A stretch of 64,000 nucleotides of DNA. Origin: Caldilineales bacterium (lineage in GTDB: Bacteria; Chloroflexota; Anaerolineae; JAAEKA01). The notes under the pieces were generated by a model. That model had not been told where the DNA came from. It searched no databases and worked only from the letters and a program-made list of their open reading frames with translations. Of this stretch, positions 32,088-37,120 are shown piece by piece (positions within the stretch are counted from its first letter, which is position 1; each line of letters begins with the position of its first letter). Position numbers and translations under genes: made by a program. The stretch is taken from contig JANWYQ010000007.1 in NCBI GenBank assembly GCA_025055015.1, positions 1,440 through 65,439 of the forward strand, written 5' to 3'.

Positions 32088-32588
32088 TTACACGCGCGCG
32101 ACTTCGGTCAACCGGCCGCTGCGCACATCGTAGATCGCGCCCACGATGGTGACGTCGGCAGGGATCAGCGGCGACGAGCGCAAGATGTTGAGGTCGTCGC
32201 GGACGCTTTGCTCCAGATCGGTGAAGGGGAGAAAGTCGCGGTCCCCAACGTCTACGCCCAGCTCAGCCTTGATCTTGGCCGCCAACTGCTCGTTGGTGAA
32301 GTGCGCCATGCCGCAGTCGGTGTGGTGGATGACCACGATCTCGTTGGTGCCCAGCAGGCGCTGCGAGATGACCAGGGACCGGATGGCATCGTCGGAGGCG
32401 CGGCCGCCCGCGTTGCGAATCATGTGGGCGTCGCCCACGGCTAGGCCCAGAAAACTCTCCGGATGCAAGCGGGCATCCATGCAGGTCAGCACAGCCACGC
32501 GTCTCTTGGGCGGCGAAGCGAGATGTCCTTGGTCGAAGCCCTCGGCATAGCGGGCATTCGCTTGCATAAGTTCGTCGAAAACTGCCAT
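32088..32588 (-). CDS. beta-class carbonic anhydrase
   Basis: 'VAVLTCMDARL' and 'VVIHHTDCGM' zinc-ligand motifs. ATG at 32588. Confidence 0.8.
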   Translation of the reverse strand: MAVFDELMQANARYAEGFDQGHLASPPKRRVAVLTCMDARLHPESFLGLAVGDAHMIRNAGGRASDDAIRSLVISQRLLGTNEIVVIHHTDCGMAHFTNEQLAAKIKAELGVDVGDRDFLPFTDLEQSVRDDLNILRSSPLIPADVTIVGAIYDVRSGRLTEVARV

Positions 32589-32754
32589 AGGTATGTTCCT
32601 TTCGTGCGTAGATTGATTTGATCGCTCGGGCCGGTCTTGCAACCGAGCCCACCCAGTAGTGACATGGTCAGAAGACCCGCCACGGCAATTCCCGAAGTGG
32701 GCCGACGGAGCCCCGTCGTGGCGCGGTCAGGAGACCGGCCACAGCAAATACGCC

Positions 32755-34708: not shown

Positions 34709-35929
34709 TCACTCCCGCGCCGGCATGCCGCAGAACTGCTCGTAGTCAATCAGCTGCGTCACGGTCGGGTTCTCGCCGCACAGGGGGCAGGCCGGGTTAC
34801 GACGCACGGTCAGCGTGCGGAAGCTCATGTCCATGGCGTCGAACATCAACATGCGGCCGATCAGCGGCTGGCCCTTGCGCAGGATCAGCTTGATGGCCTC
34901 CACCGCCTGGATGGAGCCTACGATGCCGGGCAGCACGCCCAGCACGCCGGCCTCGGCGCAGCTGGGCACCTCGCCGGGCGGCGGCGGGTCGGGGTAGAGG
35001 CAGCGATAGCAGGGCCCGGCCTCGATGCCTTCCTCCGGCGCGCCGGGGTGGTACACCGTCACCTGGCCCTCGAACATGAAGATGCTGGCGTCCACCAGCG
35101 GCTTGCGCAGCAGGTGGCAGGCATCGTTGATCAGGTAGCGGGTGGGGAAGTTGTCCGAGCCGTTGAGCACGATGTCGTAGTCGCGGATGATCTCCAGGGC
35201 GTTGGCGCTGGTGATGGGCTCGTTGTAGGGGCGAACCGTCACGTCGGGGTTCAGGTCGCGCAGGCGAGCCGCCGCGGACTCCACCTTGGGCTTGCCCAGC
35301 CAGCTCTCGCCGTGCAACACCTGGCGCTGCAGGTTGCTCAGGTCCACCGTGTCGTAGTCCACGATGCCCAGGGTGCCCACGCCGGCCGCGGCCAGGTAGA
35401 GCGCCGCCGGGGAGCCCAGGCCACCGGCGCCGATGAGCAGCACCTTGGCGTCCAGCAGCTTGATCTGCCCCTCTTCGCCCACGTCGGGCAGCAGGAGGTG
35501 GCGGCTGTAGCGCGCCTGCTGCTCCGGCGTCAGGATGCGCGGCACGGTGATGGGGTAGTCGGCGTCCAGCCAGCCGTTGAAGCCGCCGCTCAGGGACTCC
35601 ACCTGGGTATAGCCCATCTCCCGCAGGTTGCGCGCCGCCAGCAGGGAGCGCACGCCGCCGGCGCAGTAGAGCACGATGGGCGTGTCGGGGTCGTAGGCGT
35701 GTTGCTCGATGCGCAGCTCCAAGAAGCCGCGCGGGATGAAGATCGCGCCGGGGATGTGTCCCTGTTCGTACTCCTCCCGCTCGCGAATGTCAATCACCAA
35801 GGGCGCGGTGCCGTTGCGCAGCCGCTGGTACAGCGCCCGGGCGGTCGTCTCAGGCACCTGGCTGCGGGCCAGGGCCAGCAGCTGATCGCGGTTCAGACGG
35901 GTCATGGCGGTGTGCTCCAAACGTGACAT
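34709..35929 (-). CDS. moeZ: MoeZ/ThiF-type sulfur-carrier adenylyltransferase with N-terminal rhodanese domain
   Basis: Rhodanese 'VIDIREREEYEQGHIPGAIFIP...LYCAGGVRS'. ThiF 'YSRHLLLPDVGEEGQIKLLDAKVLLIGAGGLGSPAALYLAAAGVG...DLSNLQRQ'. Zn motifs 'CYRC' and 'CPLCG'. The TAATG junction overlaps the cysO stop by 1 nt. Confidence 0.8.
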   Translation of the reverse strand: MSRLEHTAMTRLNRDQLLALARSQVPETTARALYQRLRNGTAPLVIDIREREEYEQGHIPGAIFIPRGFLELRIEQHAYDPDTPIVLYCAGGVRSLLAARNLREMGYTQVESLSGGFNGWLDADYPITVPRILTPEQQARYSRHLLLPDVGEEGQIKLLDAKVLLIGAGGLGSPAALYLAAAGVGTLGIVDYDTVDLSNLQRQVLHGESWLGKPKVESAAARLRDLNPDVTVRPYNEPITSANALEIIRDYDIVLNGSDNFPTRYLINDACHLLRKPLVDASIFMFEGQVTVYHPGAPEEGIEAGPCYRCLYPDPPPPGEVPSCAEAGVLGVLPGIVGSIQAVEAIKLILRKGQPLIGRMLMFDAMDMSFRTLTVRRNPACPLCGENPTVTQLIDYEQFCGMPARE

Positions 35930-36204
35930 TACCGTCCCCCGGCCATGGCCGGCACGATGGACACCTGGTCCTTGGCGGCCACGGGGGTGTTGAGGCCCTG
36001 CAGCGTGCGAATCTCCTCGCTGTTGACGAAGATGTTGATGAAGCGCTTGACCTGGCCATCGCCGTCCAGCAGGCGCTCCCCGATGCCGGGGTAGGCGGCC
36101 TCCAGGTTGGCCAGCAGCTGGCCCACGGTCTCGCCGGGGATCTCCACTTTCGAGTGGTTCGCGGTCAGACGGCGAAGAGGGGTCGGGATCAGAATGGTCG
36201 CCAT
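35929..36204 (-). CDS. cysO: ThiS/MoaD/CysO-family sulfur carrier protein ending in ...AMAGGR
   Basis: 91 aa beta-grasp-like: 'ILIPTPLRRLT...VEIPGETVGQLL...FINIFVNSE...VSIVPAMAGG' plus one extra Arg. Strong SD (AAGGAG). Confidence 0.7.
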   Translation of the reverse strand: MATILIPTPLRRLTANHSKVEIPGETVGQLLANLEAAYPGIGERLLDGDGQVKRFINIFVNSEEIRTLQGLNTPVAAKDQVSIVPAMAGGR

Positions 36205-36232
36205 ACGAGCTCCTTTCCTTTCGTTGCCGATG

Positions 36233-36273
36233 AAATAAAAAAGCTCATCGCAGCGGTCAACCGTGCGATGAGC
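36233..36273 (-). terminator. intrinsic terminator inside the cysO leader
   Basis: On the minus strand: GCTCATCGCA-(11 nt loop)-TGCGATGAGC followed by TTTTTTATTT. It ends 28 nt before the cysO start codon. Confidence 0.7.
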
Positions 36274-36380
36274 TCATGGTGTCGTAGACGGCTCGGCGCC
36301 AAGACCGAAAAGGGTGGCCGGGCGCCGGTCAGCTATGAAGTTGTTGCCAAAAGCACTGCTTCCTGAGGTCTCATCGCACG
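36262..36380 (-). promoter_or_regulatory. putative antiterminator helix of the cysO leader
   Basis: 36370-36380 is perfectly complementary (11 bp) to 36262-36272, which is also the 5' arm of the terminator stem. The two helices are mutually exclusive. Confidence 0.5.
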
Positions 36381-36426
36381 CGTGTCGAGAGGCGAGAGCC
36401 ACCGGCACACGTGGCCGGCGCTCCCG

Positions 36427-36468
36427 CTACAGACAGATGCAGGTGCAGACCGAGACGACAGGAAGCAT
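36427..36468 (-). CDS. candidate leader mini-ORF MLPVVSVCTCICL (speculative)
   Basis: ATG...TAG, 13 codons, with 3 Cys codons among the last 6. No clear SD. Lies in the cysO leader upstream of alternative helices. Confidence 0.2.
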   Translation of the reverse strand: MLPVVSVCTCICL

Positions 36469-36526
36469 AGATCACAACAAACCTGAACGAAGTGTCCTCT
36501 AGTGCTTTTGCACTATTGGCCCAAGT

Positions 36527-37120
36527 CTATTCGGGCGACGGCAGTTTGTCAAGTATGCGCACTTCCTCTGAGACGACCACCGGCACCTCGACCACCCACA
36601 CGCGCAGCCAGCGCTCGCGCTGGCCCGGCTCGGCGATAGCCAGCTCGTAGCGGCTGCCGGCGGCGTCCGCGCGAAAGGCGGCCAGGAAGGCCGGGTTGCC
36701 GCGCACAGGCCGCAGGCCCTCCGGCCGTTGGCCCAGCTCCTCCTGGATCAGCCGGAACCCGCGGACCACCGGCCGGTCAGGCCGCAGCAGCGAGCAGATC
36801 AGGTAGACGGCGTCCGGGTAGAAGGCGTTGCGGGCGTCGGTGGCCGACGGAAAGGCCTCGTCCACCGGGTGGGAGTGGTAGATGGCGATCATCTCCTCGC
36901 CCCGGTCCTCGAACTCGAACTGCTTGAGCAGCGTCTGGCCGTCCACCCAGTAGTCCATGATCGGGTTGGCGGCTTCGTTGCGGCCGCGCACCAGCTCCGT
37001 AGCCACGCCTGCGCGGCCGGCCAGGATGCCGCACACCTCCTCCGGCGCGCCGGCCCGCGCGTGGGCGATGATCTCGTGGTAGATCTGGGGCGGCAGTACG
37101 ATAGCGGTTGGCTCGCTCAT
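36527..37120 (-). CDS. mec: JAMM/MPN+ (Mov34) metalloprotease, Mec-like
   Basis: 'EEVCGILAG' and '[16 protein letters not shown]' JAMM motif (HxH...S..D). Sits upstream of the cysO-like carrier. Confidence 0.75.

Follow-up and report, generated by a model that had tools for sequence, protein, structure and literature searches.

The 64,000-nt stretch of DNA from a Caldilineales bacterium that was analysed (the window) carries on its minus strand a series of genes for cysteine synthesis (CysO, MoeZ, CysM, CysK and CysE), which lie 3' of a structured leader. All features described here are on this strand. In the direction of transcription, the regulated operon (36220-31178) consists of the cysO Shine-Dalgarno sequence AAGGAAAGGAG (36220-36210), cysO (36204-35929, with its ATG at 36204), moeZ (35929-34709), cysM (34699-33710), cysK (33717-32755), a beta-carbonic-anhydrase-like gene (32642-32088) and cysE (31999-31178). 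Their spacing and common strand suggest that all of these genes are co-transcribed.

Elements of the leader

Upstream of the leader, a sigma-70-like promoter (TTGACA-17 nt-TAGACT, 36552-36524, 10 of 12 matches) overlaps the last codons of mec. A motif scan yielded three sites of this type in 10 kb against 0.4 expected, and transcription is predicted to start near 36517. The 5' untranslated region folds into a small hairpin, UAGUGC-AAAA-GCACUA (36515-36500); on reading the sequences, hairpins with a CAAA-type loop are seen at the matching place in other leaders of the same sub-type (group C, see below).

A mini-ORF of 13 codons, MLPVVSVCTCICL followed by a TAG stop codon, extends from the ATG at 36468 to 36427 and contains three Cys codons (36447-36445, 36441-36439 and 36435-36433). 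The preliminary description had pointed to this Cys-rich ORF, and it is unlikely to be a product of chance: at least three Cys codons among the last six are found in only one of the 355 ATG-started ORFs of 8 to 30 codons in the whole window, while Cys makes up 0.57% of the residues in neighbouring proteins. The caveat that the mini-ORF has no good Shine-Dalgarno sequence was correct as well. Its translation is a prediction from sequence, and the lack of a Shine-Dalgarno sequence, together with a 49-nt 5' untranslated region counted from the predicted start site, speaks against attenuation.

The other caveat, that no 1:2 pairing links the mini-ORF to the antiterminator, was mistaken. In the minimum free energy (MFE) fold, the mini-ORF pairs with 36389-36357 in a long hairpin, P1, the domain of which amounts to -63.8 kcal/mol. 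Its 5' strand, segment 1 (36467-36430), lies wholly within the mini-ORF, as indicated by MFE folds and by covariation in the lower helix, and its 3' strand, segment 2 (36389-36357), holds the antiterminator strand CGUGCGAUGAG (36380-36370). An apical hairpin, P2 (GCGGGAGCGCCGGC.../...GCCGGUGGCUCUCGC, 36427-36392, -25.4 kcal/mol), begins 5 nt past the last Cys codon, its first G being the G of the stop codon. The spacer between mec and cysO as a whole has a folding z-score of -5.0.

Close to cysO, an intrinsic terminator is formed by segment 3 (36275-36261), which is its 5' arm, and segment 4 (36256-36233), which comprises the 3' arm (36256-36241) and the U-tract. The hairpin, GAGCUCAUCGCA-CGG/uuga/CCG-c-UGCGAUGAGCUU (36275-36241), has a stem of 12+3 bp and a folding energy of -24.1 kcal/mol, and is followed by U6-A-U3 (36242-36233), which overlaps the last two bases of the arm. 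The terminator thus lies where it had been placed before, while the hairpin is slightly larger than the 10-bp stem then proposed. A simple terminator scan that allowed loops of 3 to 8 nt missed it, probably because the outer stem encloses more than such a loop. Likewise borne out is the alternative pairing of 11 bp: CGUGCGAUGAG is the exact complement of CUCAUCGCACG (36272-36262) within segment 3. When the upstream 250 nt were shuffled 2000 times, an equally long exact complement arose just once. The resulting antiterminator duplex (-21.7 kcal/mol) and the terminator are mutually exclusive.

The spacer between segments 2 and 3 (36356-36276), which becomes the antiterminator loop, contains local hairpins at 36355-36345 and 36326-36295. 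Its semi-conserved UCAUAGC (36338-36332) is able to pair just 5' of the start of the mini-ORF, and the spacer may provide a time delay and help to sequester the start codon. A second ORF, from the ATG inside GCGATGAG to the semi-conserved UAG, was considered and rejected; it fits the window and not the orthologous leader L117. The cysO ATG follows the U-run at a distance of only 32 nt. This leaves no room for a separate cysO promoter, and cysO must therefore be transcribed through the terminator.

Conservation and covariation among orthologous leaders

The comparative set consists of 44 distinct leaders from Chloroflexota (Anaerolineae and Caldilineales), each located 5' of cysO. Common to them are a promoter, an ORF with Cys codons, a GC-rich hairpin beginning 5 nt past the last Cys codon, an antiterminator strand and a terminator; they fall into three sub-types, A, B and C. 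The promoter stands at the matching relative position in 38 of the 40 fully modelled leaders and the antiterminator at a conserved position in nearly all. The frame of the mini-ORF, its start codon and the C-x-C codons are maintained throughout the 44 leaders, with an in-frame pair of Cys codons, TGY-NNN-TGT, and in total 2 to 4 Cys in 10 to 33 codons. Cys constitutes 14.2% of the leader peptides, compared to the 0.57% quoted above. Furthermore, no leader has fewer than 10 open codons 5' of the core in the Cys frame; the minima of the other two frames are 1 and 2 codons. In ten group-C leaders, an ATG at a constant distance from the Cys core gives rise to ORFs of 16 codons. In sub-type B (L001, L002, L007, L017 and L063 among them), the ATG is situated only 6 to 7 nt past the -10 box with respect to predicted starts, so that the ORF appears to be leaderless.

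The first conserved Cys codon shows synonymous TGC/TGT variation. The two conserved Cys codons also lie within helices P1c and P1d, and the second is always TGT; conservation at the nucleotide level could therefore be partly structural.

Compensatory changes are found in each of the helices 1:2, 2:3 and 3:4. The Cys-codon mini-ORF and the alternative pairing that had been picked out in the window are both conserved in orthologues. In the antiterminator, 6 of 13 pairs are altered on both sides, and the covariation score (0.267) exceeds that of shuffled controls (0.137 +/- 0.013, reached in none of 500) and that of slid registers (at most 0.127). The terminator scores 0.336, versus 0.231 when shuffled (again 0 of 500). 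In the lower helix of P1, 6 of 12 pairs have changed on both sides. The duplex between ORF and segment 2 is on average more stable for cognate than for non-cognate combinations (-19.1 versus -13.3 kcal/mol; none of 5000 permutations reaches the cognate mean). As the 1:2 pairing is present and covaries, the case for a leader peptide is strengthened. A point against is that much of the covariation occurs between the three sub-types and therefore reflects few independent events.

These scores were obtained on anchored windows of fixed length. A whole-leader MAFFT alignment mis-registers the 5' halves because the ORFs differ in length, and RNAalifold applied to it loses the middle of P1. From 14 group-C leaders a covariance model (R1) was derived, which retrieves only group C and L018 and misses sub-types A and B; it is too sequence-specific to yield a family-wide structural alignment, hence the use of anchored windows. 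The middle of P1 has no common register across the sequences (L121 and L140, for instance, pair differently), and scoring was possible for its lower helix only.

A predicted cysteine attenuator and its relation to known leaders

The four segments have the geometry of a trp-type attenuator, with the pairings 1:2, 2:3 and 3:4. The preferred reading, which we consider probable at roughly 0.7, is that of a ribosome-mediated (leader-peptide) attenuator of transcription with cysteinyl-tRNA(Cys) as the signal sensed. Of the two options offered in the preliminary description, a cysteine-sensing leader peptide is thus favoured, while a riboswitch platform finds no positive support.

According to this model, transcription would begin at the promoter overlapping the end of mec, and a ribosome would translate the 13-codon mini-ORF. 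With plentiful Cys-tRNA, it would clear the three Cys codons, end at the UAG at the foot of P2 and depart. Segment 1 would then re-pair with segment 2, P2 acting as the nucleus, and the strand CGUGCGAUGAG would be locked away; about 100 nt further on, segments 3 and 4 would form the terminator and transcription would halt 32 nt 5' of cysO. When Cys-tRNA is scarce, the ribosome would stall at Cys codon 8 or 10 and mask segment 1. Segment 2 would stay free to pair with the newly made segment 3 in the 11-bp antiterminator, the terminator would not form, and RNA polymerase would enter cysO-moeZ-cysM-cysK-(carbonic anhydrase gene)-cysE.

Folding under ribosome masks of transcripts that end just past segment 3 reproduces such a switch. 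In the window, the antiterminator has a probability of 0.00 in the free leader; a ribosome placed at Cys8 raises it to 1.00 and one at Cys10 to 0.89, and for a ribosome at Cys12 or at the stop codon it is again 0.00. The off/on/off pattern recurs in most of 15 group-C leaders upon constraint folding; for sub-type A the model yields a less clear-cut, partly resolved logic. Equilibrium folds of the whole leader, masked or not, contain the terminator in most leaders, including that of the window, and give no information on the switch. As the full-length leader always favours the terminator at equilibrium, which counts against the model, the switch would have to be kinetic; stalling at the Cys codons and the timing of the switch are postulated.

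Attenuation by leader peptides is textbook knowledge for Trp, His, Leu, Thr, Phe and Ile/Val, the classical examples being trpL, hisL, leuL, thrL, pheL and ilvL of E. coli and Salmonella, represented in Rfam by Trp_leader, His_leader and others. The leaders described here share with the trpL type a short ORF rich in codons for the end product, directly before the biosynthetic operon, as well as the 1:2 pairing, the 2:3 antiterminator and the 3:4 intrinsic terminator with its U-run. In both, segment 1 lies within the ORF, so that the position of the ribosome selects the fold. There are also differences. The present family concerns cysteine and Chloroflexota, and has no similarity to the trpL type in sequence or by covariance model. 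Its Cys codons are interspersed with other codons (C-x-C-x-C) and do not make up a run, a Shine-Dalgarno sequence is lacking, a 36-nt GC-rich hairpin (P2) is inserted between segments 1 and 2, and segments 2 and 3 stand about 100 nt apart. Segment 2, at 49 nt past the stop codon, is also too far away to be masked by a terminating ribosome.

In Firmicutes, Actinobacteria and some Chloroflexi, cysteine and methionine genes are under the control of S-box (SAM-I), SAM-IV and T-box leaders. These too have a choice between terminator and antiterminator as their output before genes for sulfur amino acids. In contrast to the leaders described here, in which the sensor is a predicted translated ORF, they sense by an aptamer or a tRNA-binding stem, and none of their models matches. 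For the CysO/MoeZ/CysM route in mycobacteria, control by transcription factors is known; the present leaders suggest a mode of control for this sulfur-carrier route to cysteine outside mycobacteria.

Cys-codon leaders have been described in two other contexts. In mycobacteria, polycysteine leaderless small ORFs act as translational attenuators: the Shine-Dalgarno sequence of the following gene is paired with the Cys tract, and no terminator takes part (Canestrari et al. 2020, bioRxiv 10.1101/834739 / Mol Microbiol 114:93). According to the proposal made there, a leader duplex of very high stability is remodelled when the ribosome stalls at the Cys codons (bioRxiv 10.1101/834739). The common features are a small upstream ORF before genes of cysteine synthesis or sulfur assimilation, with the Cys tract near its 3' end, and in sub-type B also the leaderless state. 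The mini-ORF of the window, in contrast, has a predicted 5' untranslated region of 49 nt and non-consecutive Cys codons, and its Cys region pairs with 36389-36370 and not with the cysO Shine-Dalgarno sequence (36220-36210). The latter lies outside the switch, the conserved output of the Chloroflexota leaders being an intrinsic terminator/antiterminator. In Actinobacteria, candidate leader peptides with Cys codons near the stop codon were recognised 5' of cys operons by comparative genomics (Seliverstov et al. 2005, PMC1262725). The resemblance extends to the short ORF, the position of the Cys codons and the downstream operon; these candidates have no terminators (PMC1262725), whereas the Chloroflexota family possesses a complete terminator/antiterminator set.

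The searchable literature, which does not include the paper of Lopatovskaya, Seliverstov and Lyubetsky on attenuators across phyla (2010, Mol Biol 44:128), yielded no earlier terminator-based Cys attenuator, and for cysteine holds only the terminator-less leader peptides of Actinobacteria (2005) and the translational attenuators of mycobacteria (2020). A complete terminator-based attenuator with Cys codons would fill this gap and add Chloroflexota to the phyla that use leader-peptide attenuation. Within the limits of Rfam 15 and this literature, the element may thus still be called an undescribed cis-regulator, albeit one with a classical mechanism; the understanding of attenuation itself would not change. 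The 44 distinct leaders, whose three architectures include a leaderless one, provide enough material for an Rfam-style model, and the family could improve the annotation of metagenomic Anaerolineae and Caldilineae.

Other readings and the role of P2

A switch controlled by a ligand or a protein deserves attention, even if we hold it to be rather unlikely. Binding of a protein or of a metabolite, be it cysteine, O-acetylserine, sulfide or a thiol, to the conserved P2/P1 domain would stabilise the anti-antiterminator, the mini-ORF being incidental or secondary. This would agree with the strongly structured leader (the z-score given above), with the missing Shine-Dalgarno sequence of the mini-ORF and with P2: its stem is invariant in 11 group-C leaders while the flanking P1a varies freely, and a GCGGG motif starts 5 nt after the TGT in every leader listed, across all three sub-types. 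This invariance exceeds what pairing requires, and the attenuator model leaves the surplus unaccounted for. However, conserved internal loops or junctions of the aptamer type are missing from P2, a plain hairpin that varies in its apical part. Moreover, a structural RNA needs no open frame, no start at a fixed distance, no 2 to 4 in-frame Cys codons and no ATG right after a -10 box, yet these coding features are conserved in three differently built sub-types. Finally, the whole window gave no matches to Rfam 15 at gathering thresholds, SAM-I, SAM-IV, SAH and T-box included. At E <= 10, region 36100-36700 gave two chance-level matches, both to the terminator hairpin (15.1 and 12.4 bits, with cut-offs of about 42). 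A known family, which by the preliminary description would have spoken against a new regulator, is thus not indicated.

It is much less probable still that the mini-ORF encodes a functional small Cys-rich peptide, metal- or redox-active for example, which would be co-expressed with the operon; such a role would be compatible with attenuation. The conserved C-x-C motif and recurring residues other than Cys (F-T-C-S-C-R in group C, K/R-R-A-R in group A) would fit a peptide, but where codons other than Cys are conserved they fall in RNA helices, KRAR being the translated P2 stem GCGGGCGCGG. In addition, from one sub-type to another the stop codon is displaced, by 7 and 13 nt, within an unchanged nucleotide sequence, and the N-terminal halves diverge freely except where they are paired.

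The hairpin could also be seen as a constitutive terminator of the upstream mec/MBL-hydrolase unit, with a functionless complementarity and mini-ORF, since there is no other terminator between mec and cysO and the hairpin with its U-tract would halt any upstream transcript. The comparative data already contradict this reading, which is very improbable: leaders that follow an unrelated gene instead of mec retain the terminator, the antiterminator and the mini-ORF, and in L128-L134 and L137 this gene even lies on the opposite strand, so the terminator is not simply the end of a mec transcript. A conserved promoter precedes the mini-ORF, segment 2 covaries with segment 3, and the 32 nt between U-run and ATG make cysO depend on read-through. 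Neither a simple mec terminator nor a separate cysO promoter, an arrangement that by the preliminary description would have spoken against a regulator, is therefore in keeping with the data. Equally hard to credit, and dropped, is a T-box-like leader in which uncharged tRNA(Cys) would read a UGC specifier and directly stabilise the antiterminator: conserved UGC/UGU triplets and a terminator/antiterminator pair 5' of a cysteine-synthesis operon are present, but there is no Rfam T-box match, T-box sequence and specifier-loop architecture are absent, the only UGGN near the antiterminator is, on reading the sequence, the UGGC in P2, which would suit a discriminator G and mismatch U73 of tRNA(Cys), and the Cys triplets, 2 to 4 in number and always in frame with an ATG, fit decoding and not a single specifier.

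Within the attenuator reading, P2 might be more than a passive clamp. We regard it as unlikely, yet conceivable, that it serves as a second sensor or a built-in ribosome roadblock; it does not vary within sub-types, and the 5-nt spacing between its foot and the last Cys codon resembles that of frameshift-stimulating structures. The leader would then integrate two inputs, Cys-tRNA via the codons, and a ligand, a protein or a mechanical slowing of the ribosome via P2. In that case the default states of the sub-types would differ, as the stop codon is found before P2, 7 nt into P2 or 13 nt into P2.

Architecture of the cysO leader

The leader under study occupies a 322-nt spacer on the minus strand, between a gene for a JAMM desampylase-like (mec-like) protein (36527-37120) and the ThiS/MoaD-like gene cysO (35929-36204), which encodes a SAMP/MoaD-like sulfur carrier. 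On the same strand follow genes for a rhodanese-ThiF adenylyltransferase of the MoeZ/MoeB type, a CysM-like cysteine synthase, the cysteine synthase CysK and the serine acetyltransferase CysE, with a beta-carbonic-anhydrase-like gene (32088-32642) between cysK and cysE. These identities are backed by NCBIfam scans, and the genes from JAMM to CysE are closely packed or overlapping. The related loci L130-L140 differ here: their PALP (cysM-like) gene is followed by a DUF952 gene, in place of the beta-carbonic-anhydrase-like arrangement. The final codons of the mec/JAMM ORF, which stops at 36527, contain a sigma-70-like promoter, TTGACA-17-TAGACT (36552-36524, minus strand), which predicts a leader RNA starting near 36517. 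There is no terminator after mec, and transcripts of the upstream MBL-hydrolase/mec genes would enter the putative attenuator too.

The leader ends in an intrinsic terminator (36275-36241, minus strand; -24.1 kcal/mol), GAGCUCAUCGCA-CGG/uuga/CCG-c-UGCGAUGAGCUU followed by U6AU3, with a somewhat bigger hairpin than given in the preliminary description. From the U-run to the cysO ATG there are only 32 nt, which the Shine-Dalgarno sequence of cysO takes up; therefore, the operon can be expressed only through terminator read-through. The alternative pairing claimed earlier is exact: an 11-nt strand, CGUGCGAUGAG (36380-36370), is fully complementary to the 5' arm of the terminator (36272-36262), and a complement that long arose in 1 of 2000 shuffles of the 250 nt upstream. 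The whole spacer folds with -140 kcal/mol (z = -5.0 against shuffled versions). In the MFE structure, a mini-ORF (36467-36430) forms the 5' strand of a long hairpin, P1, of which the 3' strand (36389-36357) holds the antiterminator strand. This P1 domain (-63.8 kcal/mol) carries a GC-rich hairpin, P2 (36427-36392), at its tip. The preliminary description had found no pairing between mini-ORF (segment 1) and antiterminator strand (segment 2), which is contradicted by P1; with this pairing, the leader comprises all four segments known from trp-type attenuators, segments 3 and 4 being the terminator arms. The spacer between segments 2 and 3 contains a semi-conserved (C)AUAG or UCAUAGC motif (36332-36338, minus strand) that can pair with CUAU(G) at the mini-ORF start (36472-36478, minus strand). 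With this pairing, P1 reaches across the initiation region, which might sequester the start codon once a first round of translation is over and so block further initiation.

No known RNA family matched the spacer: Rfam 15 gave no match in the whole window at gathering thresholds, and permissive settings applied to 36100-36700 yielded two chance-level matches only, both on the terminator hairpin. A T-box-like mechanism is unsupported by Rfam or by sequence.

Conservation and covariation in related leaders

CysO was searched in representative genomes and metagenomes, to which contigs encoding the closest homologues (70-90% identity) were added. The closest loci are from Chloroflexota MAGs (Caldilineales, Anaerolineae, Anaerolineales), a group to which the window probably belongs as well. 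Forty-four distinct leaders have in common a promoter, an in-frame core TGY-NNN-TGT with GCGGG 5 nt on, a hairpin at or across the ORF stop, a strand (A/G)CG(A/G)UGAG 46-64 nt beyond that stop, and a terminator CUCA(U/C)CG.../...CG(A/G)UGAG with its U-run. Both the Cys mini-ORF and the alternative pairing are conserved in orthologous spacers. The core motif was not seen at more distant CysO loci of Dehalococcoidia, Chloroflexia, Bacteroidota and Acidobacteriota.

The leaders fall into three sub-types: A (loci L003-L020 and L064-L102; peptides such as MASQLLISSKSCCTCIKRAR), B (L001, L002, L007, L017 and L063; such as MIRNAQRWMGFTCSCTGRA) and C, to which the window belongs (such as MNPSFPGFFICACSCR, MIKSLPSSAQFTCSCC and MSSLPAVLTCICL). 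In sub-type B, the ATG lies 6-7 nt past the -10 box and is itself the predicted transcription start, so that the ORF is leaderless. The sub-types, still alignable in nucleotide sequence, differ in the position of the mini-ORF stop codon: it precedes P2 in C, the window's type, and falls inside P2 in the other two, by 7 nt in B and by 13 nt in A.

For the antiterminator, 35 distinct leaders were compared in windows anchored at the invariant UGAG/CUCA. Changes on both sides occur in 6 of 13 pairs (for example AU 17 / GC 17; GC 15 / UA 12 / AU 4; AU 24 / GC 5 / GU 6), with 82% of cells paired overall. Covariation scores 0.267, compared with 0.137 +/- 0.013 for shuffles (0/500 as high) and at most 0.127 for a slid partner; the terminator, in the same test, is 97% paired and scores 0.336 against 0.231 (0/500). 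Segment 3 is tracked by segment 2 and by segment 4. P1 was assessed in 11 group-C leaders with 16-codon ORFs. Its lower helix, between ORF codons 3-6 and the 12 nt that follow ..GAUGAGNNNNN, is 86% paired and changes on both sides in 6 of 12 pairs; for P1/P2 as a whole the score is 0.230, compared with 0.165 +/- 0.011 (0/500) and at most 0.109 when slid. In an alignment-free comparison, the 5' part of each ORF pairs with its own downstream strand at a mean of -19.1 kcal/mol versus -13.3 with the strands of other leaders; 0 of 5000 random re-pairings attained the mean of the true pairs. Because many of the changes separate sub-types, the independent events behind the covariation are few. P2 is invariant in the 11 group-C leaders, next to a freely variable helix P1a, and base pairing alone is insufficient as a reason; its foot, GCGGG, stands 5 nt past the last Cys codon in all leaders listed.

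Predicted translation of the mini-ORF and choice of structure

The 13-codon mini-ORF (ATG 36468 to TAG 36427, minus strand) encodes MLPVVSVCTCICL. Its richness in Cys had been recognized before. The 64-kb window contains 355 ORFs of 8-30 codons with an ATG start, among which it is the only one with three Cys in the last six codons, and neighbouring proteins contain 0.57% Cys. Leader peptides have 2-4 Cys per 10-33 residues (14.2% overall). Upstream of the core, every leader keeps the Cys frame free of stops over 10 codons or more (median 26.5); in the other two frames the medians are 8.5 and 16, and the minima 1 and 2. Ten group-C leaders have the same ATG-to-core distance. Of the two conserved Cys codons, the first is TGC or TGT and the second always TGT; this conservation may be partly structural, since the codons are in helices too. 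Shine-Dalgarno-like sequences are rare upstream of type A and C mini-ORFs and absent in the window, as the preliminary description had cautioned.

Transcripts were folded from the predicted start to just beyond segment 3, with a ribosome represented by a mask of 29 nt around the A-site codon. In the window, the modelled antiterminator probability is 0.00 for free RNA; a ribosome mask raises it to 1.00 at Cys8 and to 0.89 at Cys10, and leaves it at 0.00 at both Cys12 and the stop codon. Likewise, it is at most 0.13 in free RNA in 13 of 15 group-C leaders, at least 0.66 with the ribosome on the first or penultimate Cys codon in 14 of 15, and at most 0.21 with the ribosome on the stop codon in 13 of 15. 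Among the leaderless type B members, L007 and L063 show the same switch in the model and L017 a weak one (0.34), whereas the model has L001 and L002 constitutively "on". Type A leaders often form the modelled antiterminator in untranslated RNA and lose it with a ribosome at the stop, 13 nt inside P2, which suggests a different default state. At equilibrium, most full-length leaders, that of the window among them, fold preferentially with the terminator; therefore, the choice must be kinetic, as in known attenuators.

Transcription attenuation in response to cysteinyl-tRNA seems to be the most likely mechanism, with a probability of about 0.7. P2 would stay folded in both states and act as a clamp for the fast re-formation of P1 after departure of the ribosome, and the spacer of ~100 nt from segment 2 to segment 3 would provide time for the decision. 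The invariance of P2 could also point to a ligand- or protein-operated switch centred on this hairpin; such a switch is improbable, as it would not explain why the frame, the start codons and the Cys codons are conserved. It is unlikely that the Cys-rich peptide is itself functional, since its conserved C-terminal residues are translated RNA stems and its stop codon shifts between sub-types.

In architecture, a cysteinyl-tRNA-sensing attenuator of this kind is like the enterobacterial trp, his, leu, thr and phe leaders, although these have no sequence or model similarity to the Chloroflexota leader. For cysteine, Seliverstov et al. (2005) reported candidate leader peptides of Actinobacteria, short ORFs before cys operons, without terminators. 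Canestrari et al. (2020; 10.1101/834739) stated that no uORF-mediated attenuation had been described for this amino acid until then; their mycobacterial polycysteine leaderless sORFs act translationally, via Shine-Dalgarno sequestration, and a transcriptional reporter was unaffected. Full-text searches of the literature yielded no Cys attenuator in Chloroflexi or before cysO. The element therefore probably represents a Chloroflexota family of leader-peptide attenuators that are specific to Cys and work through a terminator: a neat, well-supported addition to a known attenuator type and no new principle.

Genomic context and variants

The gene upstream of the leader is mec in some loci, as in the window, and unrelated in others; in L128-L134 and L137, it is unrelated and on the opposite strand. 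The leader goes with cysO whatever this gene is, so that a plain terminator for mec, the alternative weighed in the preliminary description, is contradicted by the comparative data.

A few close relatives are devoid of the element and have a promoter directly upstream of cysO. In two of these (L078:440-517 and L079:280-355; CysO identity 60-61%), a near-consensus TTGACA-17-TATAAT precedes cysO by ~30 nt; thus, the attenuator was lost or never gained in some lineages. In a Chloroflexota MAG (JBBITV010000100, L011:2448-2960), antiterminator strand and terminator are separated by a gene for an Rrf2-family transcription regulator (Pfam PF02082, E = 9e-33), which an in-frame TAG interrupts. Its ATG is supplied by GCGAUGAG of the antiterminator strand, and the antiterminator loop measures ~530 nt. 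Finally, in L128:2340-2500 and the same stretch of L129, an insertion separates the attenuator terminator from cysO. It is a large inverted repeat (GTCATTCCCGCGGAAGCGGGAATCC ... GGATTCCCGCTTCCGCGGGAATGAC) that resembles a small mobile or REP-like element and across which a 61-aa gene has been called.
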